Notes under the pieces: model-generated
The model's database searches: none
What the model was told of the DNA's origin: nothing
Seen by the model: only the letters and a program-made list of their open reading frames with translations
Part shown: positions 6,712 through 64,000 of the stretch, piece after piece
How positions within the stretch are numbered: the first letter of the stretch is position 1
Layout of the letters: each line of letters opens with the position of its first letter
Program-made: the position numbers and the translations under genes
Virus record (IMG/VR): IMGVR_UViG_3300025012_000085
Location: 924-64,923 of that record
Reading direction: 5' to 3' (one strand)
Source of the DNA: a virus
Taxonomy: Duplodnaviria; Caudoviricetes
DNA: 64,000 nucleotides

Positions 6712-6882
6712 ATGGATTTTCCAGAAACAATCACAATGGATGGAGAAGTAAAGTTAGTTTCGCCGTATGACATGAAAGGCCATTTTAAGTGGGTGGTTAC
6801 TCAAGATGTTGTCTTAGTGGATCAAAGCTATTTAAGTGAACTTTTCTCCTACATACCGCCGGGGGTGGTTGCTTGTGTGTGA
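6712..6882 (+). CDS. 56-aa small protein, paralog of 20138-20251
   Basis: Strong RBS aaggagg; MDFPETITMDGEVKLVSPYDMKGHFKWVVTQDVVLVDQSYLSELFSY; stop overlaps the HNH start. Confidence 0.6.
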   Translation: MDFPETITMDGEVKLVSPYDMKGHFKWVVTQDVVLVDQSYLSELFSYIPPGVVACV

Positions 6883-7792
6883 AATTAAGACGTGCAGTCG
6901 GTGTGGGAGAAATTTGCCAGCAGACAGGCTTCATTTTTATGTATCAAAAGGAACCAGGGGTGGGTTATATTCTTCTTGTCGAGAGTGTGGAGGGCGTGAG
7001 TTCCTAAAGCCTGAACCATTTATAAAAGATGGTCATAAGATATGCACCAAGTGCAAGCGAGAGCTTCCGGCCACCACATATTACTTTAGCAAGGATAAGG
7101 AATGCAGATTTGGCGTTTGCTCTATATGCAAGGAGTGTCGAGGGTATAAATTCATGGAGGTTATGAAGGTGGTTGATGGATACAAAGAGTGTATCGTATG
7201 CCACAAGAAACTACCCTTCACTAGAGAGTATTTTTATAGCACCGGCTATACTTTAAGGGCAGATTGCAAGGAATGCGCTAGCAAGCAATCAAAAACGAAA
7301 TATGATGAAAATAATCAACATAAGAGGCAATACGCAAGGGATTGGTATCAAAAGCATTGTTCCAACAATAAGGAATATTTAGCAAAAGCAGTTATTAGGA
7401 GTACGCAGTATTCCATTGCTAATCGCCATCGTCAAAGTTATAAGACATCGTTAGCACTAAGGTCCCAAAGAAGAAGGGCGCTGGCGCATGACTTGCCAAG
7501 CACATTAACGGTTGAACAATGGAACTCCATCAAGGAACACTTTGCCCACAAATGTGCTTATTGTGGCAAGGATAAAAACCTTACTTACGACCACTTTATT
7601 CCCTTAAAGAAAGGGGGTGGATTCACATATAATAATGTGATACCTGCTTGTAGGAATTGCAATAGTCAAAAGAGTGCGAAAGATTTTACTTCGTGGTTCA
7701 GGGGATTCAAGCACTACTCCCCCGAACGAGAAGCAAAAATCCTTTCCTACCTCGGTTATGTCAACGGCATCCAACAGCTCTCCCTAGTGTAA
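6875..7792 (+). CDS. HNH endonuclease with tandem CxxC zinc-finger repeats and C-terminal clamp-binding-like motif
   Basis: Three KxCxxC...F...CxxC repeats; CAYCG...DHFIPL...N...CRNCN; ends QQLSLV; GTG start at 6875 chosen for translational coupling. Confidence 0.85.
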   Translation: MCEIKTCSRCGRNLPADRLHFYVSKGTRGGLYSSCRECGGREFLKPEPFIKDGHKICTKCKRELPATTYYFSKDKECRFGVCSICKECRGYKFMEVMKVVDGYKECIVCHKKLPFTREYFYSTGYTLRADCKECASKQSKTKYDENNQHKRQYARDWYQKHCSNNKEYLAKAVIRSTQYSIANRHRQSYKTSLALRSQRRRALAHDLPSTLTVEQWNSIKEHFAHKCAYCGKDKNLTYDHFIPLKKGGGFTYNNVIPACRNCNSQKSAKDFTSWFRGFKHYSPEREAKILSYLGYVNGIQQLSLV

Positions 7793-8542: not shown

Positions 8543-8620
8543 TGCTGATATATCGCACCTAAAAAGACAGGTATCGAATTGATGCCTGTCTTTTCCTATT
8601 CCCAAAAGGAGGGTGCAACT

Positions 8621-9025
8621 ATGTGGGTTAAGCTATGCAACTGGCTCAAAGAAAAAGAACGACTTCCACCGGACAACCACAACGAAAGCACTAAACTATG
8701 GAGCAAGGGCTACAGAAAAGCATTTCAAGAGACAAGCGAGTATGTAGCAGACATTAAACCAAATAAACCGCTAATCATCGGCGTATTAACCGTAGTCCTT
8801 TTGTCTATGTCCTTCCTCGCCCTTTACATCGAATACTCCAAAATAAATATAAATTCTGCAAGCATTGAGTCTTTAGAATCTCTTCCTGACATCGGCCCAG
8901 TATTAGCAAGGAGAATCGTTGAAGGTAGGCCTTATGAAGACGTTTGGGCACTGGATCGGGTTAGCGGGATAGGCCCAGAAACCATAAAGGCAATCGAGGA
9001 TAAAGTTAAAACGAGGGGGTTGTAA
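8621..9025 (+). CDS. membrane-anchored ComEA-like helix-hairpin-helix DNA-binding protein
   Basis: One TM helix followed by INSASIESLESLPDIGPVLARRIV...RPY...LDRVSGIGPETI (HhH_3 pattern). Confidence 0.8.
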   Translation: MWVKLCNWLKEKERLPPDNHNESTKLWSKGYRKAFQETSEYVADIKPNKPLIIGVLTVVLLSMSFLALYIEYSKININSASIESLESLPDIGPVLARRIVEGRPYEDVWALDRVSGIGPETIKAIEDKVKTRGL

Positions 9026-11076: not shown

Positions 11077-11871
11077 ATGGAGCAAAGTATTTTCAGGATA
11101 CAGAAGGACAGGGATAATCCCTATGTCATGGTAAATAAGCAATTATTGAATAATGCGGAGCTGAGTTGGAAGGCGAAAGGCTTGCTTACGTATTTACTTA
11201 GCCTACCTGACAACTGGCAAATTTACGAAGATGAAATAGTCAAACATGCTAAAGATGGCAAGGATAGCCTAAGGAGCGCCATTAAAGAATTAATAGCGAA
11301 CGGCTACATAGAAAGGGAGAGAATAAGAAATTCATCCGGACAATTAAAGGGCTACGGTTATTGTGTTTACGAGATTCATAACCAGAGCGGAAAATCCAAT
11401 GATGGTAAAACCATTAAGGGTAAATCCGCTACTAATAATACTAACTCCACAAATAATAACGTAAGTAATAATAAGATTAACATGGGAATCACATCTAACG
11501 ATGTAAATTCGTGTGTAAAAGAAAAGGCTATATCTTTTTCTGAATACAAACTTAGATATGTTGTTGGTGATTTTGAGGAAGAAAGTATTGATTATTACTT
11601 AAAATCATTTAAGCGATATAGGAAAAAGGAACATTCAAAGCTAACGAGCAAGAAGTGGGCTTATGTTGTGGATACATGGTTCCATCTTTGGGATAGCCAA
11701 AGGAATACATCGGTTGATAATGATATCTACACAATGGAGAATATAATCGATGCTCATTTTAAAACTAAGTACACATCAGGAGACCACAGCATCATTCATT
11801 TTTTATCAGGAGAGATAAGGATTAACCGTTATTATGAAACTAAGTATGACGAGAGACGAGAGATTAATTAA
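11077..11871 (+). CDS. replication initiator-like wHTH protein
   Basis: NPYVMVNK...LSWKAKGLLTYLLSLPDNW...IKELIANGYI; internal repeats ggwaaawcc at 15-bp spacing and an Asn-rich linker. Confidence 0.75.
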   Translation: MEQSIFRIQKDRDNPYVMVNKQLLNNAELSWKAKGLLTYLLSLPDNWQIYEDEIVKHAKDGKDSLRSAIKELIANGYIERERIRNSSGQLKGYGYCVYEIHNQSGKSNDGKTIKGKSATNNTNSTNNNVSNNKINMGITSNDVNSCVKEKAISFSEYKLRYVVGDFEEESIDYYLKSFKRYRKKEHSKLTSKKWAYVVDTWFHLWDSQRNTSVDNDIYTMENIIDAHFKTKYTSGDHSIIHFLSGEIRINRYYETKYDERREIN

Positions 11872-14568: not shown

Positions 14569-14844
14569 CTATTTCAAGGGAATGAACCGATTAAACATTC
14601 CTAAAGTAGTTACCTTCCTCTCGCCATAGTACGTAGTGTAAATAGTTCCAAAGTAAATATCCTTAGATGTCGTGGCTGAACTTATTAATGGCCCGCCAAA
14701 GAAAGAGACTAATCCACTCTCTAAGCCAGGTGCGCTGCGCTCTATCACCTTATCCTTTGCCCATGCTACATAATCGCTTCTAGGTGGGTTTGTGGCCGCC
14801 ATCGCAACTAACACCACAGCTAATATAGCTAATCTTTTCATCAT
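14569..14844 (-). CDS. DUF4359-like exported/membrane protein
   Basis: N-terminal TM then TNP...Y..WA and C-terminal LG.F..F pattern. Confidence 0.6.
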   Translation of the reverse strand: MMKRLAILAVVLVAMAATNPPRSDYVAWAKDKVIERSAPGLESGLVSFFGGPLISSATTSKDIYFGTIYTTYYGERKVTTLGMFNRFIPLK

Positions 14845-14866
14845 CCATCTCTCCTTTGCTCAAAAT

Positions 14867-14896
14867 TATTATTACCTGAAAAACGAACAATTATGC
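14867..14896 (-). promoter_or_regulatory. sigmaF-type (forespore) promoter candidate
   Basis: Minus strand GCATA-N15-GGTAATAATA matches the B. subtilis sigmaF consensus GYWTA-N15-GGnnAnAnTR. Confidence 0.55.
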
Positions 14897-14947
14897 AAAA
14901 CAAATCCCTCTAATCATTGCGAATAGAGGGATTTGTTATCATGTCTA

Positions 14948-15010
14948 ATCGGTCACTATATCGGTCGTTCTTTATATCAGTCACTGCATCGGTCGCCATA
15001 AACGACTGAT
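14948..15010. repeat. five ATCRGTCR repeats (4 direct, 1 inverted)
   Basis: atcggtcact 14948, atcggtcgtt 14960, atcagtcact 14976, atcggtcgcc 14988, inverted copy 15001-15010. Confidence 0.65.
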
Positions 15011-15106
15011 GTACAAGCCAAAATACGCTAAATACCTATGATTTTTCTAGGAAAAAGAGGGTTAAGGGGGAATGATTAAGGATTCCAAAGGACAAGCAAG
15101 GGGGAT

Positions 15107-15691
15107 TTACTTTAAGTACCTCACAGGGTCAACAGCAACCCCCTCCTTCCTGACCTCAAAGTGTAGGTGTGGGCCTGTTGATCTACCCGTACTTCCACAA
15201 TTACCAATCCTAGAACCTGCGATTACAGGATAGCCAACTTTCACAGATAACCCACTTAAGTGACCATATAAAGTTTCGACTCCATTTCCATGATTCACGA
15301 TAATCATATTTCCATAAATATCATCCCAACATACCTTGGTTACATCTCCCTCCCAATACGAAGTTACGGGAGTTCCTTCGTTGGCAGCTATATCAATTCC
15401 GTGATGGTCCACGCCGTTGAAGTATTTCGTTATCTTACCTTTCATTGGCAACTCATTACTACCTTGACCAATATTTGAAACTCTTTCTACTGTACCTTGG
15501 ATAGAGTCTATCCTTGCGTTCAACCTTTTCAGGGTCGGAGCAAGATCCTGTATAGTAGTTAGTAGGCCCAACATGATAGCCACCATCGCAACCAAGTTAG
15601 CGAGTTGTTTTCTCTCTACAGCGATAAGAATTACATAGGCTATAAATGATGCTACCGCAATAAATACTATGTGGAAAATCCATAAAGCCAC
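15107..15691 (-). CDS. membrane-anchored M23 peptidase with SpoIIIAC/AD-like N-terminal hairpin
   Basis: HHGIDI (HxxxD) and STGPHLHFEVR (HxH) motifs; two N-terminal TMs and a coiled coil. Confidence 0.85.
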   Translation of the reverse strand: MALWIFHIVFIAVASFIAYVILIAVERKQLANLVAMVAIMLGLLTTIQDLAPTLKRLNARIDSIQGTVERVSNIGQGSNELPMKGKITKYFNGVDHHGIDIAANEGTPVTSYWEGDVTKVCWDDIYGNMIIVNHGNGVETLYGHLSGLSVKVGYPVIAGSRIGNCGSTGRSTGPHLHFEVRKEGVAVDPVRYLK

Positions 15692-15692
15692 A

Positions 15693-15929
15693 TTACATCA
15701 CGCCTGTCGTAAAGTCGAAGAACTTCTTGAGCAACTGCCACGCTACGGCTACTACCGAAAGGATAGCAACAATTGTAGTTGCCGTTCTTAGCATTCCTGC
15801 GACCTGACCCTTATTCAATGCTCCTAAAATTAATTCCCCTAACCAAGATCCCACACCAAGCATAACTAAGATGATAATTACGAATCCAGGCTTACCTGGT
15901 CCGAATACCTCCCTTGCTGCTTCTGCCAT
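15693..15929 (-). CDS. small two-TM protein, SpoIIIAC/SpoIIIAD-like
   Basis: TM - IL..LNKGQVA.M - TM - LLKKFF layout resembling SpoIIIAC. Confidence 0.5.
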   Translation of the reverse strand: MAEAAREVFGPGKPGFVIIILVMLGVGSWLGELILGALNKGQVAGMLRTATTIVAILSVVAVAWQLLKKFFDFTTGVM

Positions 15930-16578
15930 TTAAGCATTCCTCCTTTATTTGATCTAATGAATAAACACGAAATTCAAGATTATGGGCATTCTCTTTATCA
16001 ATTTTCTCCTTGATAGGTTTAACTCTTCCAGTAGTCACAACGATAATAGCAGGGAATCGCTTGGACAAGGGAACCCACCATTGATCCATATAGGTTCCTG
16101 AATTAAAAAGCTCGTTGTATTTTTTAACTTTCTTTGCAAAGTCGTTACCACTTCTATTAATATCCATTTCGACGAAATAGAAATACATAGCATCTTGCCA
16201 TAGATTTTTTATCCCCACAAAAGCATCCGGCCGAATAGTCTTGTAGTCCTTAATCTCCCGGTCGAAGCAATGAAGTTTTTCCATATTGGAGAGAGTTGCG
16301 GTTATCCAAGTGAAGACCCACGACACGCCTAGAACATGCTCTAGCTGCCCCGGCCTACGATCTAGGTAGTAATGATATGGTTCACCTAGCCTTAGTCTAT
16401 AACGATTGACTTTAGCGTGTGGTGGAGATGAAAGGATGGCAAGGCGGCGTTGAACTATGCGGAGACAATTACCTTTGAATAAGAGTAGGTGAATCATATC
16501 CGTAGTTAGTGCTGTTTGAGATTCTAGGAGGTCAACTATTGCCCTATCGCGGCGATAACATTTTTGGTGATTGCTCAA
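15892..16578 (-). CDS. replication-relaxation (Replic_Relax) family protein
   Basis: RD..I..L...ALTT..I..L.F wHTH; QLEH.L; IRPDAF; FVEMD; K.KKY. Confidence 0.8.
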   Translation of the reverse strand: MSNHQKCYRRDRAIVDLLESQTALTTDMIHLLLFKGNCLRIVQRRLAILSSPPHAKVNRYRLRLGEPYHYYLDRRPGQLEHVLGVSWVFTWITATLSNMEKLHCFDREIKDYKTIRPDAFVGIKNLWQDAMYFYFVEMDINRSGNDFAKKVKKYNELFNSGTYMDQWWVPLSKRFPAIIVVTTGRVKPIKEKIDKENAHNLEFRVYSLDQIKEECLNGRSSKGGIRTR

Positions 16579-17677
16579 TCTTTATCAACTCGCTTCGTAC
16601 AATCATTGGCCTATTGTTATAGAGTTTTATCGCTTCGTCGGGTTCTAATAACAATGTTTGAACCTCTAATTTCTCAAGACCACATTTATAGATAGCTCTG
16701 CCTTTTATTGCTGGAAGGTGTGCCGCCTCATCACTGTCCAAGATCATCCTGGAGTTAATTATATCGGCCACAACAAAACATATCCTTCCGAGAAACATTG
16801 CTTTTAGATCACCAAACTTTTCAAACACTTTGGAGGATGGCCTCTGTGTGGCTGCAATCACATGTACTCCAACAAATCTCCCCATCCTCAGAAGCCTCCA
16901 TAAGCTGTCTTGTGCATCTTCTGGCAAGTCTGCCCACTCGTCTATAATTAGGACTATATAGGGCATCTGGTGGCCTTTCTTGTGGTATTTCTTGATCTTA
17001 GCGCATGATGCTGACTTTAGAATCTTCTTTCGCTTATCCATCTCTTTATTCAGTGACTCGAACAAACCCTTAACTTGACTCATTTCGTCTACTACCAAAG
17101 CCATTTCATTAAGATAATCAAACTCAGTCGATTTAGGGTCGATGATAATCAAGTTGGTGTCCGGCCTGTAAAGGAGGATTGAGTTCGCGATAACATGGAG
17201 TTGATTCGATTTTCCATAGTTCGTTTCCCCGGCTGTTAGTAGGTGCGGATAATCCACAAGGTCCCTAACTATTAATCCTTTAGCGGATACACCTAATGGT
17301 AGTGGTAATTCCATCTTGGAATATTTAGTGTGGTCATAGAGAGAGTATGGGTACTTCTTTTTAAGTTCCTCGGTCATAACCTCCATGGTGACTAATTTTC
17401 CGTGCTTTTCGATATGGACTGAACCACCTGTTGCATCTGCAAATAGTTGAGTCTTTTTCTGAAAATCAGAGAATCCAGTTCCAGGAGGAAGGAAGATTCT
17501 AAACGTCCATACTTCACCATCTTTTGATTTATGGATAATTAAAGGTTTTAGTTCACCCTTGGAGTACAGGGCATCTACGCAATCCTGAACTGCTGCATGG
17601 GCATCATTGCCCTTACGATGGAGCCAAAGCGATTTAAGCTGGTCCCTGACTTCTTCTATTACGTTTTGCTGCTTCAT
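16544..17677 (-). CDS. FtsK/SpoIIIE-family ATPase
   Basis: PHLLTAGETNYGKS (Walker A), IIDPK, LIIDEWADL (Walker B), ATQRPS, KGRAI. Confidence 0.92.
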   Translation of the reverse strand: MKQQNVIEEVRDQLKSLWLHRKGNDAHAAVQDCVDALYSKGELKPLIIHKSKDGEVWTFRIFLPPGTGFSDFQKKTQLFADATGGSVHIEKHGKLVTMEVMTEELKKKYPYSLYDHTKYSKMELPLPLGVSAKGLIVRDLVDYPHLLTAGETNYGKSNQLHVIANSILLYRPDTNLIIIDPKSTEFDYLNEMALVVDEMSQVKGLFESLNKEMDKRKKILKSASCAKIKKYHKKGHQMPYIVLIIDEWADLPEDAQDSLWRLLRMGRFVGVHVIAATQRPSSKVFEKFGDLKAMFLGRICFVVADIINSRMILDSDEAAHLPAIKGRAIYKCGLEKLEVQTLLLEPDEAIKLYNNRPMIVRSELIKIEQSPKMLSPR

Positions 17678-17828
17678 CCATCAATCCCCTTTCAATCAAT
17701 ACTTTCCTCAGTCCGTCCCTAATCATGTCGGCTAGTTCTCCTTCTTCAAGGCTGAGACACATAATAGCTTGCCGAATATCCTTATCCCTTTTCCTTAACC
17801 TAGCCCTAAGAATTGATATATCGTCCAT
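17634..17828 (-). CDS. ribbon-helix-helix-like regulator
   Basis: ILRARL...DKDI...LADMIRDGLRKVL; first gene of the operon. Confidence 0.55.
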   Translation of the reverse strand: MDDISILRARLRKRDKDIRQAIMCLSLEEGELADMIRDGLRKVLIERGLMDEAAKRNRRSQGPA

Positions 17829-17862
17829 TTGTGTACCTCCTGGGTAATCGTTGTGTTACATG

Positions 17863-17892
17863 AAGGTATGGGATACTGTTTGTACTATATTC
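17863..17892 (-). promoter_or_regulatory. sporulation sigma (sigmaE/G-like) promoter candidate
   Basis: Minus strand GAATA-N17-CATACCTT upstream of the FtsK operon RBS. Confidence 0.45.
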
Positions 17893-17926
17893 CTGTTAAA
17901 TTTAGGCAAAAGAAAAACCAGACATA

Positions 17927-18463
17927 TCATGTCCGGCTAAATAGCTTTCTCCACCAAGGATTATTGCGTTGTTGTGCTTCTTTTATTTCCGTCAGGCGTT
18001 GTAATACCTCATTATCTCTCTCCTCTACGCTCCTAGACCTATCCTCTGCTCTCTTATTGTGATCTGTTAGGGTTTGCCTTATACCCTCTATTTCCTCTTG
18101 TAATTCAAGGATTAGCTCGTCCCTCCTGCTTAACTCCTGCTGAAGCATAACTCTTAAACTATGCACTAAATCTTCTTGTTGCGTTGCCTCGGTGTTGTTG
18201 TCCGGTTCTTGCGTAACAATATCGGTTGTTATATTAACTCCATACCTTTTATCTAGCACCTCTACTATTTGATCATGGTCTAATTTCTTGACATATGATG
18301 CCTTGATAACATTCAATATCTCCACAGTGGAGGACTTTTCGAACTTAGTAGTTTTTCCTTCTCCTTGAGTGCGAAAATATTGGAGGTAAGTATCCTTGTA
18401 ATAACGACAGGTGCTTATGTTTATGTCCGTAAGTTCGGAGCATTGTTTAAGGGTTAAGTACAT
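17927..18463 (-). CDS. MerR-HTH coiled-coil protein (RacA / pSK1 Par-like partition factor)
   Basis: N-terminal MerR-type HTH, long coiled coil, amphipathic C-terminus PWWRKLF. Confidence 0.7.
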   Translation of the reverse strand: MYLTLKQCSELTDINISTCRYYKDTYLQYFRTQGEGKTTKFEKSSTVEILNVIKASYVKKLDHDQIVEVLDKRYGVNITTDIVTQEPDNNTEATQQEDLVHSLRVMLQQELSRRDELILELQEEIEGIRQTLTDHNKRAEDRSRSVEERDNEVLQRLTEIKEAQQRNNPWWRKLFSRT

Positions 18464-18618: not shown

Positions 18619-19434
18619 ATGCCCGAAACCAAGGTATGTAGTAGGTGTAAGCGTAGTCTTCCGGCTGATAAACTTCATTTTTATCCCGCAAGCAATACCA
18701 AGGACAAGTTTCATTCTGCGTGCAAAGAGTGTGAAGGTCACAGATTTACGCAACCAAGGGTTATGAAGAATGGCTATATGATATGTTGTAAATGTGGGAA
18801 AGGGTTTCCATCGACAAGTGAATATTTTTCTAAGAAGAAAACTGCGAAAAGTGGTCTTAATGGCCGGTGCAAAAGCTGCGAGTCCAGCGCGCATAAAGCA
18901 TACTACGAGAATAATAAGTCGTATATCTTAGCATCTGTCAAGAGGTATCGGGAGATAAATAAAGAAGAGAGAAGGGAATACTATAGGGCTAATAAGCAGA
19001 GAAAATTAATAATGGTCAAGCAATGGCAAAGGAAAAATAAGGTACGCAGGGCAACTAATAATAGATTGTGGAAAGCGGCCAATATGGAGAAGATGCGCGT
19101 ATACAGACAAACTAGGAGGGCAAGGAAAGAAAATTTACCATCTTCCTTAACGGTCGAGGAATGGATAAATATAAAAGCGGAATTTGAAAACAGATGTGCT
19201 TATTGCGGAAAAGACACACCACTAACCCAGGATCACTTTATCCCCTTATCTAAGCACGGGGAGTACACTCGTGATAATATAATTCCGGCTTGCCCAAGTT
19301 GTAATAATGGCAAAAATGCAAGTAATCCATTCGAGTGGTATCCGATGCAATCGTTCTATAGCAAAGGTAGGGAATCTAAAATATTAAAGCATCTAGGATA
19401 TAAGAATAACAAGCAACAACTGAGCTTGTTTTAG
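18619..19434 (+). CDS. HNH endonuclease with CxxC repeats and QLSLF tail
   Basis: Two Zn-finger repeats; CAYCG...DHFIPL...CPSCN; ends QQLSLF. Confidence 0.88.
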   Translation: MPETKVCSRCKRSLPADKLHFYPASNTKDKFHSACKECEGHRFTQPRVMKNGYMICCKCGKGFPSTSEYFSKKKTAKSGLNGRCKSCESSAHKAYYENNKSYILASVKRYREINKEERREYYRANKQRKLIMVKQWQRKNKVRRATNNRLWKAANMEKMRVYRQTRRARKENLPSSLTVEEWINIKAEFENRCAYCGKDTPLTQDHFIPLSKHGEYTRDNIIPACPSCNNGKNASNPFEWYPMQSFYSKGRESKILKHLGYKNNKQQLSLF

Positions 19435-19445
19435 CGCGACTCGCT

Positions 19446-19955
19446 TCATAGATAGAATTTCTCATACTTATCTTTCTTAGCTGTTTTTCCAGTTTCCTTT
19501 TCTTTCTTTTTATATTTTCTTTTATTAATACTGTTAGTATTGGAATTGTTAGTATTAGTGTCCTCATTTACCGTATCCCCATTTACTGTATCCCCAAATT
19601 TAGGACATGGTTCCGTGTCCTCATTTCTAGGACGCGGTTCTATTTTAGTGTTCAGAATGTAGATATTGTGGCTGAATTTACCAGACTCCTTAACGCGCTC
19701 AACCGTTATGTATCCATGCTCATCTAATAACTTAAAGTGTTTGTAATAGCGAGTTTTACACATGCAAAGATCGTAGATGATCTTGGATACGCTTGGAAAA
19801 GCACTGCTCCCTGCCCCGGCATAGCTTGCGAAATAAGCATAGATGCACTTTGCCTCCGGTGTTATCCTACGATCCTGCATGAGTAACTTAGGGATATTTC
19901 CAAATCCTTTAGAGTTGATACCTACTACTTTTAGTATGTCCTTATCTTTTTGCAC
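19446..19955 (-). CDS. replication initiator (HTH_36-type), putative plasmid-state Rep
   Basis: IPKLLMQDRRITPEAKCIY.Y..SYAG....AFPS...I..DL...L...GYI. Confidence 0.75.
   Translation of the reverse strand: MQKDKDILKVVGINSKGFGNIPKLLMQDRRITPEAKCIYAYFASYAGAGSSAFPSVSKIIYDLCMCKTRYYKHFKLLDEHGYITVERVKESGKFSHNIYILNTKIEPRPRNEDTEPCPKFGDTVNGDTVNEDTNTNNSNTNSINKRKYKKKEKETGKTAKKDKYEKFYL
19558..19627. repeat. iteron-like repeats (putative origin) inside rep
   Basis: gtgtcctcattta 19558, gtatccccattta 19573, gtatccccaaatt 19588, gtgtcctcatttc 19615, next to an AT-rich tract. Confidence 0.6.
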
Positions 19956-20409: not shown

Positions 20410-20796
20410 TCACTTAGACTTCATTTTTTTGATCGACTCCAGAAGATCACGAAGAAATTCGGGGTCTATTTTTTCGTTGTAAAGCTGTCTGGCTAACATA
20501 GCGTAAGGTAGACTCTCTTGTTTAGCAAAAAACTCAACCAGATCCTCCGGAAGGTCAACATTGTTAAGCTCAACCAACTTACGAAGAGACATAATATTAT
20601 TGTCTAACAGATATGCCGAGTCAACACCCAATGCCTTGGCTACCTTCTCTAAGGCTCTGATTGACATGTTGCATTTACCGTTTTCCGTGTCTGATAGATA
20701 AGACAAGGAAAGACCTGTTCTTTTGTGCAGCTCAGTCAAGGATATATCCCTTATCTTTTCTCTAACATACTTTATCTTGTGGCCGTAGTCCATCAA
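20410..20796 (-). CDS. CI-like XRE repressor
   Basis: HTH_3 (ISLTELHKRTGLSLSYLSDTENGK); divergent from the cro-like gene. Confidence 0.85.
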   Translation of the reverse strand: MMDYGHKIKYVREKIRDISLTELHKRTGLSLSYLSDTENGKCNMSIRALEKVAKALGVDSAYLLDNNIMSLRKLVELNNVDLPEDLVEFFAKQESLPYAMLARQLYNEKIDPEFLRDLLESIKKMKSK

Positions 20797-20848: not shown

Positions 20849-20932
20849 TTCGTTATTCTCGAATAAACATATTACATAATAACTAATATTTATGAAACAA
20901 AGCTTGATTATTCGAGATATTCGAAGTATACT
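20849..20932. promoter_or_regulatory. genetic switch: two TTCG-N7-CGAA operators and the rightward promoter
   Basis: ttcgttattctcgaa 20849-20863; ttcgagatattcgaa 20911-20925 between TTGATT(20904) and TATACT(20927). Confidence 0.7.
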
Positions 20933-21002
20933 ATATATATGTTATGGAATAGCTTACCAGAACTACTCCATAACAATTATTTCGTATAAGGAGGTGAAGA
21001 CG

Positions 21003-21200
21003 TTGACAATCGGCAGCCAAATTCGAAAATGTAGAAATATGAAAAAATGGACACTAAGTCAGCTTGGAGAACGCGCAAAGCTGAGAGAAAGCACTCTGAG
21101 TGAAATAGAGAACGGAAAGCACGGCCCGAGCGTGAAGTCGCTCAAACGGGTTGCCGAAGCTCTTGAGGTCGAAGTTGGGTATCTATTTCAGGCAGAGTAA
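21003..21200 (+). CDS. Cro-like XRE protein
   Basis: TTG start after aaggaggtg; WTLSQLGERAKLRESTLSEIENGK. Confidence 0.85.
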   Translation: MTIGSQIRKCRNMKKWTLSQLGERAKLRESTLSEIENGKHGPSVKSLKRVAEALEVEVGYLFQAE

Positions 21201-36571: not shown

Positions 36572-36725
36572 CGGATTGCTCGACAAAGAAATTGGCAAAG
36601 AGTTAGGATGCAGCGCAAACACTATATGGGCATGGCGAGATAAAAACGATTTGCCGAGTAATGTAGGTATTTTTAGCTGGGATAAAGGCTATCGTGAGGG
36701 GGTTGAGAGGGTATGTAATGGATAG
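36522..36725 (+). CDS. small HTH protein (paralog family, copy 3)
   Basis: ALQLWLNG..DKEIGKELGCS.NTI..WR...LPSNVGIFSW. Confidence 0.65.
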   Translation: MARSHLDKEKALQLWLNGLLDKEIGKELGCSANTIWAWRDKNDLPSNVGIFSWDKGYREGVERVCNG

Positions 36726-38154
36726 GAATCCATACTTGGACGGAACACCGGATGAATTTATCGAAAAGAATCTTGGATTAGCTCGACATATTGCTTGGAA
36801 ATACGTTAAATCTCGTAAAGATCGTGACCCTGATGATATCCTGAGTGTCGCCAATCTTGGGCTAGTTAAGGCATATCAAGGATTTAATCCAGAGGGAAGA
36901 ACTGGTCAAGATGGCAAAGAGATTACATTTGCGGCATACGCAGGGAGTACAATTCACGGATTCATCATGACATTCCTTCGCGTTGACCGTCCTATCCACC
37001 TCGGGAGAAGAGCTATTGACCTAATCGCTAAGCTAAATTCCGCAGGATTAATCGGGAATGAAACCATTGAGGAAATTGCAATAAAAGCAGGGATTAGCAC
37101 CAAAGAAGCCACTGAGGCGGTTATGGCAAGTGTTGCGGTTAACACCGATAGCATGGATCGTGAAATAGTCACAGAGGATGGAAATATTACCCTTGGGGAT
37201 ATGTTTGGAAAATGTGACGAGATAAACGAAAGTCAGGAAATAGTTGATGATTTTGTTACACAATTACCACCTAAACTTAAAGAAATATACAGACTACGCA
37301 TAGTTGGAGAAAAAACGCAAAGAGAAATAGCGGATATCATGGGACTTAGTCAATCGTATATCACTAGGCTTGAAGAAAAACTAATGAAAACAGCGCGTCA
37401 ATATGGAGATGTGCAAAAAAGATTGGAGGATGAAGCTATGGGAAGAGAAATATCACCTGAGACAAAACTAATGCGCGAGGAAATTGATACCTTCGCTAAA
37501 TTTGGCGTAATCGGAACTTATGAGGATGTCGCGAATAAGTATGGAGTCGGAAAAAGCACGGCCTATGCTTGGATGAAAAAACTTATGAGTGAAGGGGAGG
37601 TGAAGAGGGTGGAGGCAGTTACTGAGGTAAAAGAAATGAAGATGGAAGAGACGACTTTTTTCGAAATACCCAATACACCGGAGAGCTATCAAGCGATAAA
37701 TGAGGCCGTAGGGGTCACAGAAGGGGTTGTCTTGCCGTTGAAGGTTGAGGGGGTGGAGGAATGTATTGAGGAGGTGAAAGTCGAGCCGGAAAGGGGATAT
37801 ACAGATTGCTTTGGACAATACGATGCTTCCTGCGAATTAACTCCTTGCGGAAGAATTAGTGAATGTAGTTTTGTTAAGGAAAATCCTATTAAGGAAACCA
37901 AGGATGATCTCGAAGGATTGGCGGAACCGGAACCGAAGTGGACTCCTGGGTATGCAGGACGTATACCGAGAAGGATGAGCGACGAAGAAGAGAGAAAATT
38001 ATTAGATGCAATTACAGGTTTAGATACCGAAGAATTGGATGAAGAATTATGGATAACGGTTACTGATGACCTCAAGGGGTTACGCGAACGAATGATTAGG
38101 CGAGCTGAAATTAAGTTTAATGAGAGAATTAATCAAATTTTGGGAGGAAAATAA
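36694..38154 (+). CDS. SigF/SigG/SigB-like sigma factor with long C-terminal extension
   Basis: NLGLARHIA...DDILSVANLGLVKA...F..YA...I.G.I...LR; region 4 KTQREIADIMGLSQSYITRLE. Confidence 0.85.
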   Translation: MRGLRGYVMDRNPYLDGTPDEFIEKNLGLARHIAWKYVKSRKDRDPDDILSVANLGLVKAYQGFNPEGRTGQDGKEITFAAYAGSTIHGFIMTFLRVDRPIHLGRRAIDLIAKLNSAGLIGNETIEEIAIKAGISTKEATEAVMASVAVNTDSMDREIVTEDGNITLGDMFGKCDEINESQEIVDDFVTQLPPKLKEIYRLRIVGEKTQREIADIMGLSQSYITRLEEKLMKTARQYGDVQKRLEDEAMGREISPETKLMREEIDTFAKFGVIGTYEDVANKYGVGKSTAYAWMKKLMSEGEVKRVEAVTEVKEMKMEETTFFEIPNTPESYQAINEAVGVTEGVVLPLKVEGVEECIEEVKVEPERGYTDCFGQYDASCELTPCGRISECSFVKENPIKETKDDLEGLAEPEPKWTPGYAGRIPRRMSDEEERKLLDAITGLDTEELDEELWITVTDDLKGLRERMIRRAEIKFNERINQILGGK

Positions 38155-57779: not shown

Positions 57780-58853
57780 TTGTCCGAAATGAAGATTTGT
57801 AGTAAGTGTGGGGAAGAGTTTCTGTTAACTATTGAATATTTTTACCGCAAAAAGACTTCTAAAGATGGCTATGAGGGACAGTGTAAAAAGTGTATAGCAA
57901 AGCGTAATGCAAGTTACGTCAAGAAGCCCAAGAGGGTATTTATTAATGATACTAAGGAAAATTATCCTTCTGGTACAAAGGAATGTTCTATATGCAAACG
58001 TGAATTACCTGCTGATGAAAATCATTTCTACCTAGATAGTAATTATCCTGGGAAATTCGTTTCGGCATGCAAGGAATGTCGAGGATATAATTTTAATAAA
58101 CCGAAAGCAATCACAAGAGAAGGTCATAAGATTTGCTCAAAGTGCGAGATTGAAAAACCACTAACTAGTGATTATTTTAGCGAAAGACCCAAGGGTTCAA
58201 TTGATGGATTTAGGGGAGAATGTAGAACGTGTGAGACGTCACGCATTCGGGAATGGACAAGCAGAAACAGAGTTGTGCGTAGGGAAAAACAAAGGGAGTG
58301 GAAATATTCAGACCCAAAAAGAAAAGAAAAATGGGATTCATATTACAGCAAGAATAGGGATGCAATAATAGCTAGGGCTAAGAAATGGGATACGGAACAC
58401 AAGGAAAGGTCTTTACTTAGGTCTCATGAATGGTATGAAAATAACAAAGAAAGGTCAAAGGCTAATACGGTGGCTTGGCGCAAGGCTAATCCTGAGAAAA
58501 AGGCGTTGTCGCATCAAAAACGTAGATCGTTAAAAAAGAAACTTAAATCCACGCTGACCATTGAACAGTGGGAAATAACCCTAAATCATTTTAATGGAAA
58601 ATGTGCCTACTGTGGGGAAGGCCCGAAAGACGGAGATGTTCTTCAGAGGGATCATTTTCAGCCATTGGCAAAACATGGTGAATATTCTGCTATTAATGTA
58701 TTGCCAGCCTGTAAGTTCTGTAATAGCAGTAAGGGGAAGAAAATATTCTCTATGTGGTATCCGCTTTTTAAGCACTACTCACCAAAGCGTGAAAGAGATA
58801 TTCTTAAATATCTAAATTACCGCAATGGGGTACAACAACTAGCACTCATATAG
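57780..58853 (+). CDS. HNH endonuclease with CxxC repeats and QLALI tail
   Basis: Three Zn-finger repeats; CAYCG...DHFQPL...CKFCN. Confidence 0.88.
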   Translation: MSEMKICSKCGEEFLLTIEYFYRKKTSKDGYEGQCKKCIAKRNASYVKKPKRVFINDTKENYPSGTKECSICKRELPADENHFYLDSNYPGKFVSACKECRGYNFNKPKAITREGHKICSKCEIEKPLTSDYFSERPKGSIDGFRGECRTCETSRIREWTSRNRVVRREKQREWKYSDPKRKEKWDSYYSKNRDAIIARAKKWDTEHKERSLLRSHEWYENNKERSKANTVAWRKANPEKKALSHQKRRSLKKKLKSTLTIEQWEITLNHFNGKCAYCGEGPKDGDVLQRDHFQPLAKHGEYSAINVLPACKFCNSSKGKKIFSMWYPLFKHYSPKRERDILKYLNYRNGVQQLALI

Positions 58854-63541: not shown

Positions 63542-64000
63542 ATGGCTACTACCGCATCTCAAACGGCAGATGAAATAAGGAAAGCTAGTATTGCGGCTGC
63601 TCAGGCAAGTGGCACAAAGAATCTCTACGACACGCCAACGACTACCACCGACAGATTAGCAGGAAGTGGATTGGCTGAAAGCGGGCCACCTGCCAGAATA
63701 CCTGGTGTTCCTAATCCGAACAGCACCCCGACAACAACTCCTCCAGCTACCACGCCTGAGACTACTACTCCAACCACCGCCCCCACGACTACTACTCCGC
63801 CTGCAACAACTCCTGCCACAACAACTCCTGAGGTTATCACTCCGCCACCTGTTGACTATGCAGCTCAAATACAAGCAGCTATAGCAGCAATGCAAGCGAC
63901 ATCCAATCAACAGGCAGAGGCAACGGCAGCGAGAGAGGCGGCATCAGAAGCAGCGAGACAGGCAGAAGCAGAGGCAATAAGAATACGCCAAGCTCAGGCG
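63542..64000 (+). CDS. 3'-truncated Thr/Pro/Ala-rich virion protein
   Basis: RBS aaggaggt; MATTASQTADEIRK...TPTTTPPATTP... open to the window end. Confidence 0.65.
   Translation, partial: MATTASQTADEIRKASIAAAQASGTKNLYDTPTTTTDRLAGSGLAESGPPARIPGVPNPNSTPTTTPPATTPETTTPTTAPTTTTPPATTPATTTPEVITPPPVDYAAQIQAAIAAMQATSNQQAEATAAREAASEAARQAEAEAIRIRQAQA

Follow-up and report, generated by a model that had tools for sequence, protein, structure and literature searches.

What would a tailed phage do with a DNA pump, a relaxase-family enzyme and a peptidoglycan hydrolase encoded side by side? The question is raised by a minus-strand gene module in the virus record IMGVR_UViG_3300025012_000085 (Duplodnaviria; Caudoviricetes), of which positions 924 to 64,923 were analysed; this stretch of 64,000 nucleotides, here called the window, is nearly the whole of the 64,923-bp IMG/VR record. 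The module occupies a moron-like region with lysis genes on one side and a repressor on the other. Within it a gene for an FtsK/TcpA-like ATPase lies directly upstream of, and overlaps, a gene for a protein of the Replic_Relax family, as in pairs of type IV coupling protein and relaxase genes, and these are followed by genes for two proteins with predicted transmembrane (TM) hairpins, the second carrying an M23 metallopeptidase domain, and by a conserved non-coding block with a repeat array. The homologies, the gene order and this cis-site lead us to read the module as a relaxosome-plus-motor cassette of the conjugative type, and it may be a self-contained cassette, carried by the phage, for the site-specific nicking and pumping of DNA, a reading that we hold tentatively and that falls a little short of an even chance.

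All seven open reading frames (ORFs) that an initial annotation, made from the sequence alone, had described here on the minus strand are present as described, in strand and in position. With their non-coding elements they are:

17927..18463 (-), 178-aa protein with a putative N-terminal helix-turn-helix (HTH), a coiled coil and a C-terminal WWRKLF tail, peripheral to the module
17916..17938 (-), terminator-like hairpin ending the 178-aa gene, a 10-pair stem followed by a T-run
17634..17828 (-), 64-aa basic protein, a candidate DNA-binding accessory or regulator
16544..17677 (-), FtsK/TcpA-like P-loop translocase of 377 aa (PF01580)
15892..16578 (-), Replic_Relax (MOBC-type) protein of 228 aa (PF13814)
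15693..15929 (-), 78-aa protein with two hydrophobic helices (a hairpin, from hydropathy) and no known family
15107..15691 (-), 2-TM hairpin fused to an M23 metallopeptidase, 194 aa (PF01551)
15010..15106 (-), conserved non-coding block, a C/T-rich tract and then TTTTAGC.TGTACAT
14948..15009 (-), repeat array of one inverted and four direct GACYGAT copies
14899..14937 (-), operon-end terminator-like hairpin with 17-nt arms, 94% complementary, followed by a T-run
14569..14844 (-), DUF4359 small protein of 91 aa (PF14271, 8.2e-7) with an N-terminal hydrophobic segment
14542-14566, bidirectional terminator-like hairpin beyond the DUF4359 gene

The operon proper runs from 17828 down to about 14899 on the minus strand. 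Its first five genes mostly overlap (44, 35, 38 and 3 nt, taken from the 64-aa gene downward), in keeping with the translational coupling that had been proposed for them, and Pfam and PHROGs searches bear out the FtsK/SpoIIIE, Replic_Relax, M23 and DUF4359 identities.

The putative motor matches FtsK_SpoIIIE (PF01580) at 8.3e-23 and phrog_1358 at 1.2e-62, and its Walker A (G150/G155/K156), Walker B (D246/E247) and TQR (277-279) residues are invariant in 30 sequences. Its top match among PDB sequences is 6o1z, a 'DNA translocase coupling protein' (5.6e-21) that we take to be TcpA of plasmid pCW3, with FtsK (2ius, 2.5e-19) second; the similarity to 6o1z, 6o1x and 6o1w covers residues 94-348. TcpA resembles FtsK and may move double-stranded DNA, according to PMC12857230. 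A hydropathy scan found no hydrophobic segment reaching threshold in the window's ATPase and none in the first 60 residues of any of 120 homologues; within the first 100 residues a single homologue, a 273-aa fragment, has one, at residue 62. The protein also lacks a C-terminal gamma (winged-helix) domain, since it ends about 40 residues past the motor and matches only FtsK_SpoIIIE, DUF87 and AAA_19 in Pfam. Because it has no membrane domain, the ATPase alone cannot form a SpoIIIE-like septal channel. Other resemblances are faint: the NCBIfam plasmid_TraB model scores 48 bits against a cut-off of 800, and PADLOC returns FtsK-domain matches to SspH and mad8 and a '4TM effector' match at E 0.003.

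The neighbouring protein scores above the Replic_Relax threshold (PF13814; 6.2e-9, 36.6 bits, gathering cut-off 25.3), and the family is present on most of its homologues; at E 6e-9 it is only a distant member. PHROGs labels its family 'replication initiation (by nicking)', CONJscan files PF13814 as the MOBC relaxase family (PMC5357655), and the Replic_Relax family has been assigned to the PD-(D/E)XK fold (PMC3424549). In the AlphaFold2 (AF2) model, which has a mean confidence (pLDDT) of 92.1, residues 5-73 align with a winged helix (Z 9.4, root-mean-square deviation 1.5, 62 residues aligned; VIA-align), and the best alignment for residues 77-228 is to the catalytic domain of the site-specific nickase N.BspD6I (Z 8.6, deviation 3.6, 129 aligned), with weaker resemblance to the nuclease domains of Shedu, HamA, LmuA and Cdn1. 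Residues H81, E108, D118, E137, K150 and Y154 are invariant in 31 sequences. The protein is thus modelled as an N-terminal winged helix followed by a PD-(D/E)XK nuclease-like domain of the MOBC family. The first proposal, that a relaxase-family enzyme stands beside an FtsK-type motor, is supported.

Downstream of this pair, the hydropathy scan confirmed a pair of hydrophobic segments in each of the next two products, the 78-aa protein and the M23 protein, which has its pair at the N-terminus, beginning at residues 1 and 29. The 78-aa protein has no Pfam (E<=0.1) or PHROG match, and its 22 homologues all come from one clade, none with a Pfam family. It had been likened to the sporulation protein SpoIIIAC, a likeness that did not survive profile comparison: in hhalign against profiles built from 19 SpoIIIAC and 26 SpoIIIAD ORFs of the host order, the probability was 1.9% for SpoIIIAC and 0.1% for SpoIIIAD, against 70.7% for the control comparison of SpoIIIAC with SpoIIIAD. 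The Pfam SpoIIIAC model (PF06686) matches other loci in module-bearing genomes and never the module, and a SpoIIIAC hint from a language-model search (0.85, 14% of cluster members, below trust level) was rejected after the hhalign result. The M23 domain itself is unambiguous (PF01551, 1.8e-33), and H96, D100, H144, H175 and H177 are invariant in 9 sequences, leaving the zinc ligands and the catalytic histidine intact. The SpoIIQ-like role suggested for it reduces to a generic match, as the NCBIfam SpoIIQ model gives 71.9 bits against a cut-off of 250, below generic M23 models, and the catalytic H/D/H residues are invariant. In the related loci L112, L115, L116 and L007 the M23 domain is gone and the N-terminal 2-TM hairpin is kept with about 40 further residues as a 62-100-aa ORF; these variants argue that the hairpin, rather than the peptidase, is the conserved element. 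Small 2-TM ORFs also stand directly 3' of the relaxase gene in further Bacillota_B loci. In phage Riggi the position after the relaxase gene holds a weak T4SS_pilin match (E 0.019), and TrbC/VirB2 is listed with the FtsK-Replic_Relax gene set of related phages in PMC9658697.

The cis-site begins directly past the M23 stop codon. In an alignment of 12 lineages this conserved non-coding block comprises a C/T-rich tract, TTTTAGC.TGTACAT, the repeat array and the terminator-like hairpin. In the window the inverted GACYGAT copy lies at 15003-15009 and the direct copies start at 14988, 14976, 14960 and 14948, with a spacing of 12/16/12 nt, and 5 of the 12 GACYGAT copies of the 64-kb window fall within these 62 nt. 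A repeat cluster alone is unremarkable, because the window contains 12 clusters of a 6-mer (>=3 copies in 60 nt); the argument for a function is that position and architecture are conserved while the motif changes. Twelve other lineages show this architecture after their last membrane gene, with the core motif GACCGAT in L003 and L009, CGACCnnG or GGACCA in L111, L112, L114, L115 and L116, TTAGTCG in L005, and CGAAC or TAACGAA types in L007, L113 and L126; the array of L008 is weaker, and there is none in L118 or L122, where ORFs follow immediately. Most of these arrays were recognised by eye or by regular expression. An exact-6-mer scan recovered only that of L112 and an unrelated-looking one in L117, and found none in the four Bacillus phage loci scanned. 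In L117 (5662-5727) there are five to six tandem 15-nt repeats with the core GGTGCCAACCTG, about 800 nt past a relaxase gene without membrane genes, and these may be that lineage's equivalent cis-site.

The inverted copy covaries with the direct copies, in the alignment with the last of them. An RNA structure was considered for the block and rejected: neither the block nor the rest of the window matches an Rfam family, there is no consensus fold signal (-0.59 kcal/mol), and the sole 'pairs' are those of the inverted copy with the last direct copy. The motif groups track the N-terminal 80 residues of the relaxase better than they track FtsK, the 78-aa protein or the relaxase C-terminus. L111 and L112 have an ATPase of the window's type and L114-L116 one of a 45%-identical type, and all five share one motif type; the L116 relaxase is 75% identical to that of L112 and 45% identical to the window's over the N-terminus, and 68% identical to the window's over the C-terminus. 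In this small sample, the pattern points to the winged helix of the relaxase as the reader of the repeats, and the array is a candidate binding site of an oriT-, clt- or iteron-like locus. A cis-site whose motif co-varies with the N-terminal domain of the relaxase is new in this analysis. The MOBC prototype TraX, which likewise carries a winged helix at its N-terminus, binds five direct repeats 70-120 bp from nic (PMC12857230), and by analogy the four-plus-one array here resembles the binding site of MOBC oriTs.

Conservation of the module was examined in IMG/VR loci and in genomes of its likely hosts, the named protein relatives of the phage clade indicating Desulfitobacterium, Desulfosporosinus, Desulfitibacter and Sporomusa as the host range. 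The module is syntenic in 7/7 IMG/VR loci and in 16/16 stretches from Desulfitobacteriales genomes, so that the arrangement is not due to chance. The order of ATPase, relaxase and 2-TM protein genes is kept in all seven IMG/VR loci, six of which have the full TM-M23 gene. In the 16 genomic stretches the relaxase gene always follows the ATPase gene (in L124 the match covers only the first 74 residues), and the 78-aa protein is found in 8, the full TM-M23 protein in 6 and the M23 TM hairpin alone in 3. A close ATPase homologue occurs in 14 of the 103 genomes of the host order, and a phylum sample around that order gave relaxase matches in 8/401 genomes, with an adjacent ATPase in 7. A scan of genome contigs with the FtsK alignment was swamped by chromosomal FtsK (80 loci, 28-39% identity) and served as a source of genomes only. 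The label Candidatus Moranbacteria on an ATPase homologue (P0019, 68% identity) looks doubtful. In one complete chromosome (L113; G006:C1, ~3137000-3140200) the five-gene module and its array stand between GNAT and Big_2 genes, with no phage gene within 10 kb and the nearest integrases 22-24 kb off; this copy is either a remnant or a free-standing islet.

The triad of a small ORF, FtsK and an overlapping Replic_Relax gene recurs in the Bacillus phages phiCM3, DLc1, Riggi and 268TH007. Since tblastn with the window's relaxase found DLc1 only, the phiCM3 protein was used instead, and as a query it found 26 isolated-phage records. The relaxase genes of Staphylococcus phage SpaA1 (HE614281/NC_018277) and Stenotrophomonas phage TS-12 (MW302330) are 97.5% and 68.7% identical to that of phiCM3, and the host labels of both phages look doubtful. 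The initial annotation had tied the module to extrachromosomal prophages without an integrase, and this tie is broken by several relatives: in L120, a window-related contig of 67.7 kb, a tyrosine integrase gene separates a repressor-like gene from the module, phiCM3 and 268TH007 have integrases near it, and DLc1, a phi29-like phage, carries the core pair. Three genomes have integrases at a distance of 38-65 kb, as they would if these marked the opposite end of a prophage.

The link to spore-forming hosts that had been proposed survives a direct test. SpoIIIAC is present in 38/41 genomes of the host order, and the 26 isolated-phage records of the pair are of Bacillus, Geobacillus and Cytobacillus type only, apart from the two SpaA1 records and the one Stenotrophomonas record. 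In a Bacilli sample of 401 genomes (the class around a Lacticaseibacillus genome), the relaxase profile matched 18 genomes, in 15 of which an FtsK-like gene lies directly upstream. SpoIVA is present in 271 of the 401, taking the relaxase and SpoIVA counts to come from the same sample, as their genome ranges agree; the FtsK-Replic_Relax pair is found 15/15 times in SpoIVA-positive and in 0/130 SpoIVA-negative genomes (Fisher p=0.0025, uncorrected for phylogeny), and the sole SpoIVA-negative relaxase match (G553) has no FtsK neighbour. In the samples searched, the pair is thus restricted to spore formers.

Several known systems share parts of this anatomy. The MOBC systems (CloDF13 MobB-MobC, pAD1 TraX) also combine a small Replic_Relax/PD-(D/E)XK enzyme bearing an N-terminal winged helix with a directly upstream ATPase gene, an order that in CloDF13 is reportedly MobB-MobC, and with short direct repeats as the likely binding site. 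They differ in that the ATPase here is FtsK/TcpA-like rather than VirD4-like, the element is a phage, and there is no type IV secretion system (T4SS). The TcpA coupling proteins (pCW3, the Tn916/ICEBs1 family, streptococcal integrative and mobilizable elements) include the nearest solved relative of the ATPase and likewise form compact modules; in the streptococcal elements described in PMC5357655 a tcpA-like gene stands immediately upstream of the relaxase gene, as here, and MOBC relaxases accompany only VirD4, never TcpA. Unlike these systems, the module has no N-terminal TM helices on its ATPase and no VirB4/TcpF-like ATPase in the phage or in most host genomes, and its relaxase is of PD-(D/E)XK type whereas TcpA partners are of Rep_trans or tyrosine-recombinase type.

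Transfer by a single motor is known from Streptomyces, where the clt locus is read by the C-terminal HTH of TraB itself and TraB systems have no relaxase; the window's ATPase, in contrast, lacks a C-terminal HTH and is accompanied by a relaxase. The shared elements are a single FtsK-like motor working without a T4SS, a repeat-containing cis locus near the motor gene and small membrane (Spd) proteins (PMC5365140). The same source describes the 'transjugation' ATPase TdtA of Thermus thermophilus, an FtsK/HerA-type ATPase without a DNA-binding domain that acts with restriction-endonuclease-like nucleases and pushes DNA out of the donor without a T4SS (PMC5365140); the likeness is one of descriptions, as the ATPase and nuclease families are different and the element is an integrative and conjugative element rather than a phage. 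SpoIIIE and the SpoIIIA-SpoIIQ channel have in common with the module an FtsK-family motor, a membrane-anchored M23-fold protein and spore-forming hosts, and differ from it in that the module has no TM channel domain, its M23 domain is catalytically intact and its 2-TM proteins are not SpoIIIAC/AD. The closest layout is that of the Bacillus phage cassettes (phiCM3, BtCS33, DLc1, Riggi, 268TH007, GBSV1, RBClin15, Novomoskovsk), which often follow lysis genes and show the same order of small ORF, FtsK and Replic_Relax at only ~28-30% protein identity; the 2-TM protein, the TM-M23 peptidase and a clear repeat block are additions found in the clade of the window.

The core FtsK-Replic_Relax pair is thus already known as annotation, and its roles have been guessed to be in injection, in segregation or replication, or in sporulation. 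The pair has no assigned function in the open-access literature searched, in agreement with what had been supposed of its occurrence in Bacillus phages. FtsK, Replic_Relax and a ribbon-helix-helix (RHH) protein are annotated as replication/segregation genes of plasmid prophages (PMC9658697, PMC11526630, PMC7685451), DNA injection has been guessed as a role (PMC3853050), and phage FtsK/SpoIIIE homologues have been supposed to serve DNA translocation or sporulation (PMC4113786, PMC3853050), so that such a role is already in print as speculation; FtsK/SpoIIIE is not mentioned in the main text of some papers on phage sporulation genes. CONJscan/MOBC member tables or phage gene lists in supplementary files might already include such cassettes.

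How, then, would a conjugation-type cassette of this kind work? The Replic_Relax protein would use its N-terminal winged helix to bind the array of one inverted and four direct copies that lies just past the operon, and its PD-(D/E)XK domain would nick or cut within the adjacent conserved sequence. The FtsK/TcpA-like ATPase, probably a hexamer without TM segments, would be loaded at this site and translocate the phage DNA, while the 2-TM protein, together with the M23 protein's hairpin, would dock the motor at the membrane, the extracytoplasmic M23 peptidase would open the peptidoglycan locally, and the 64-aa basic protein would serve as an accessory or regulator. The membrane hairpins and a peptidoglycan hydrolase with intact catalytic residues are co-inherited with the core, and the combination of hairpins with an active wall hydrolase suggests that the DNA crosses an envelope or septum. 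A neighbouring cell, reached without a VirB4-type T4SS, is a possible though doubtful destination, and the forespore or sister compartment of a sporulating host an unlikely one.

Several observations weigh against a nick-and-pump cassette. The ATPase has no N-terminal TM domain, unlike FtsK, SpoIIIE and TcpA. The matches of the modelled nuclease fold are middling, with a best Foldseek E of 5e-3 (none at E<=0.001) and a Z of ~8.6. A helper T4SS is mostly missing from the phage and the host order, since VirB4-like AAA_10 (PF12846) is absent from the phage, as had been noted, and at 1e-10 from 5/5 module-bearing genomes, while the ~7 long VirB4-like matches of the host order fall in 5/103 genomes, none of them module-bearing. 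The core pair also occurs in the phi29-like DLc1 and, reportedly, in podophage Pony, where cell-to-cell transfer makes little sense; the CM3-type Bacillus cassettes have no downstream membrane gene; and the FtsK gene of phage Fah belongs to the delayed class in lytic infection, according to a review (PMC4113786). The repeats, moreover, would equally suit iterons or a centromere.

The state of the phage genome bears on the alternatives. CheckV estimates the virus record to be 98% complete, and its final 126 nt (window 63875-64000) are identical to record positions 10-135, so that the ends overlap, the assembly closes on itself, and an ORF open at the 3' end of the record runs on into the first ORF; listed as linear in IMG/VR, the assembly is therefore either circular or redundant at its termini. 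A divergent HTH pair, cI-like at 20410-20796 (-) and cro-like at 20892-21200 (+), forms a repressor-type switch. Profile searches of the phage genome found no tyrosine integrase, no serine recombinase or resolvase and no ParA (PF13614), ParB (PF02195) or tubulin-like protein (PF00091), a partition-gene negative that covers these three families, ParM/StbA (PF06406) not being assessable.

Such a genome could belong to a plasmid prophage, and the module might then serve maintenance within one cell, the Replic_Relax protein acting as an initiator that binds iterons and nicks while the ATPase and the basic protein segregate or resolve copies. We consider this rather doubtful, and the evidence divides. 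The completeness, overlapping ends and repressor switch of the genome, with its lack of integrase, resolvase, ParA, ParB and tubulin, all fit, as do the PHROGs label, the Pfam name 'replication-relaxation' and the position of the module on the repressor strand beside an HTH_36 DnaD-like gene. An arrangement of four direct repeats and a conserved flank is shared by iteron origins and rolling-circle double-strand origins, so the array suits this reading too, and the published replication/segregation annotations favour it (PMC9658697, PMC11526630, PMC7685451). Yet integrase-bearing prophages and a phi29-like phage with protein-primed replication also keep the cassette and have no need of such a replicon; neither replication nor segregation in the cytoplasm offers a role for 2-TM proteins or for an active, membrane-anchored peptidoglycan hydrolase; the best relatives of the ATPase are membrane or septum DNA pumps; and the phage already has a primase-helicase and two HTH_36 initiator-like genes. 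A role in prophage defence or exclusion, with the ATPase and the nuclease together sensing or attacking DNA that enters the cell and the membrane and peptidase proteins serving as variable effectors, seems to us very improbable. The moron-like position between lysis genes and repressor fits it, the genes after the constant core do vary (the 78-aa protein with TM-M23, TM hairpins only, none, or in RBClin15 a caspase-like gene), and the resemblance of the nuclease to Shedu, HamA, LmuA and Cdn1 and the PADLOC hits to SspH, mad8 and a '4TM effector' lean the same way; however, no PADLOC system model matches the nuclease, the 78-aa protein or the whole set, defence systems are not known to have a dedicated, co-varying cis-site next to them, and the core is present in lytic phages.

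The remaining alternative is a special case of the nick-and-pump reading, in which the cassette, at work during sporulation, loads on the phage genome and pumps it across the asymmetric septum to the forespore, and the spore thereby comes to carry the phage. The host distribution given above, the SigB/F/G-like sigma factor of the phage, the complete genome without integrase, ParA, ParB or tubulin, and the established entrapment of viruses in spores (bioRxiv 10.1101/2021.11.12.468384) all speak for it, and we nevertheless give it a low probability. The TM proteins lack SpoIIIAC/AD homology, the M23-SpoIIQ match is generic and a TM channel domain is missing from the ATPase; many of the relatives are prophages with integrases, integrated in a chromosome that takes them into the spore anyway; the sigmaE/K-like -10 element discussed below occurs only in the window, L003 and L009; and the distribution test ignores shared ancestry. 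A further class sample (G882; 260 genomes, one unscored) gave 1 weak winged-helix-only match and was not used. Of the initial interpretation, then, the relaxase-family enzyme beside an FtsK-type motor and the spore-former link are supported, whereas the SpoIIIAC and SpoIIQ homologies, the tie to integrase-less phages and the SpoIIIE-like channel are not. That phages of endospore-forming Bacillota encode a T4SS-independent nick-and-pump machine, built of a MOBC-like loader, an FtsK/TcpA-like motor free of TM segments, a co-evolving cis-site and, in some clades, a membrane dock and peptidoglycan hydrolase, and that it drives the genome across the sporulation septum or between sister cells, making spore carriage an active process, is improbable on this evidence.

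Cassettes that pair FtsK/SpoIIIE with Replic_Relax are common in Bacillus phages and, on the present evidence, in those of Desulfitobacteriia. The locus gives them a fuller anatomy, with membrane hairpins and an active M23 hydrolase, and it is above all the defined, co-varying cis-site that opens the system to testing. Should the cassette prove to carry phage DNA across compartments or cells independently of a T4SS, phages of spore formers would have a new way of persisting or of spreading horizontally; should it prove to be a device for replication or segregation, an FtsK motor would underlie a new type of plasmid-prophage maintenance.

The first gene of the operon encodes the 64-aa basic protein. 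In an alignment of 10 sequences it has a conserved LRARLRKRDKDI...GE.AD..RDG.RK, in which we take the pattern G-E-x-A-D-x-I-R to resemble helix B of an RHH fold. The RHH label that it had been given finds no further footing, as there is no Pfam, PHROG, NCBIfam or PADLOC match, the AF2 monomer model consists of two long helices and no strand (pLDDT 80), and Foldseek returned no match for it. In other lineages unrelated small proteins occupy this position. Upstream of the 64-aa gene lies CATACCTT, which resembles what we take to be the -10 consensus of sigmaE/K; it is found only in the window, L003 and L009 and is absent from the other 8 of the 11 aligned lineages, and a sigmaE/K-like promoter was rejected as a general feature of the module, being limited to the window's closest relatives. 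A conserved near-palindrome, ACA(A/G)GTAA(A/T)TTGT followed by CACA, precedes the small ORF in L111, L112, L114, L122, L007 and L119, between a promoter-like ATATTAT and the operon start. This operator-like element is missing upstream of the operon in the window.

The two flanking genes are present as first described. Both look like separate transcription units, because the 178-aa gene ends in its own terminator-like hairpin and a spacer of 262 nt, holding a hairpin with a T-run and a promoter-like site, separates the DUF4359 gene from the M23 gene. DUF4359 adjoins the module in only 5/7 IMG/VR loci and also, as a weak match, in L120; the 178-aa gene is likewise kept in only 5/7 and in 0/16 of the Desulfitobacteriales stretches. 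The 178-aa protein matches phrog_3470, of unknown function (1.7e-4). It had been called a MerR/RacA-like anchor, a label unmatched by any Pfam MerR hit at E<=0.1 or by any RacA or MerR chain among its 22 PDB sequence matches (E<=10); the sole lead is a language-model feature search, which groups it with MerR_1+DUF3967 clusters at a score of 0.94.

The phage genome as a whole encodes tailed-phage functions, namely a large terminase, portal, major head protein, primase-helicase, SbcC-like protein and sigma factor, together with an Amidase_3 endolysin. No isolated phage or plasmid is closely related to it, and a megablast search of both collections with the module gave no match. Four groundwater-metagenome DNA runs contain the stretch and one sediment run contains a small share of it; no RNA run is listed among the sequencing runs that contain it. 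Further genes of interest are:

36694-38154 (+), sigma factor of 486 aa, nearest to the SigB/SigF/SigG subfamily (TIGR02980, 5.8e-30, below cut-off)
6836-7792, 18619-19434 and 57780-58853 (all +), three paralogous HNH/endonuclease VII-like genes
19446-19955 (-) and 11077-11871 (+), two HTH_36/DnaD-like initiator-like genes
8579-9025 (+), 148-aa protein with a helix-hairpin-helix of ComEA-like DNA-binding type (HHH_3, 6.8e-13), just upstream of the endolysin

A sigma factor of the SigB/F/G kind is the sporulation-like type reported in Bacillus phages that also carry FtsK. The HTH_36 gene at 19446-19955, on the repressor strand beside the module, is a candidate for replication in the plasmid state. 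Between it and the 178-aa gene, the HNH paralogue at 18619-19434 is the sole plus-strand gene within the minus-strand, lysogeny-side block, and it looks like an inserted homing endonuclease.

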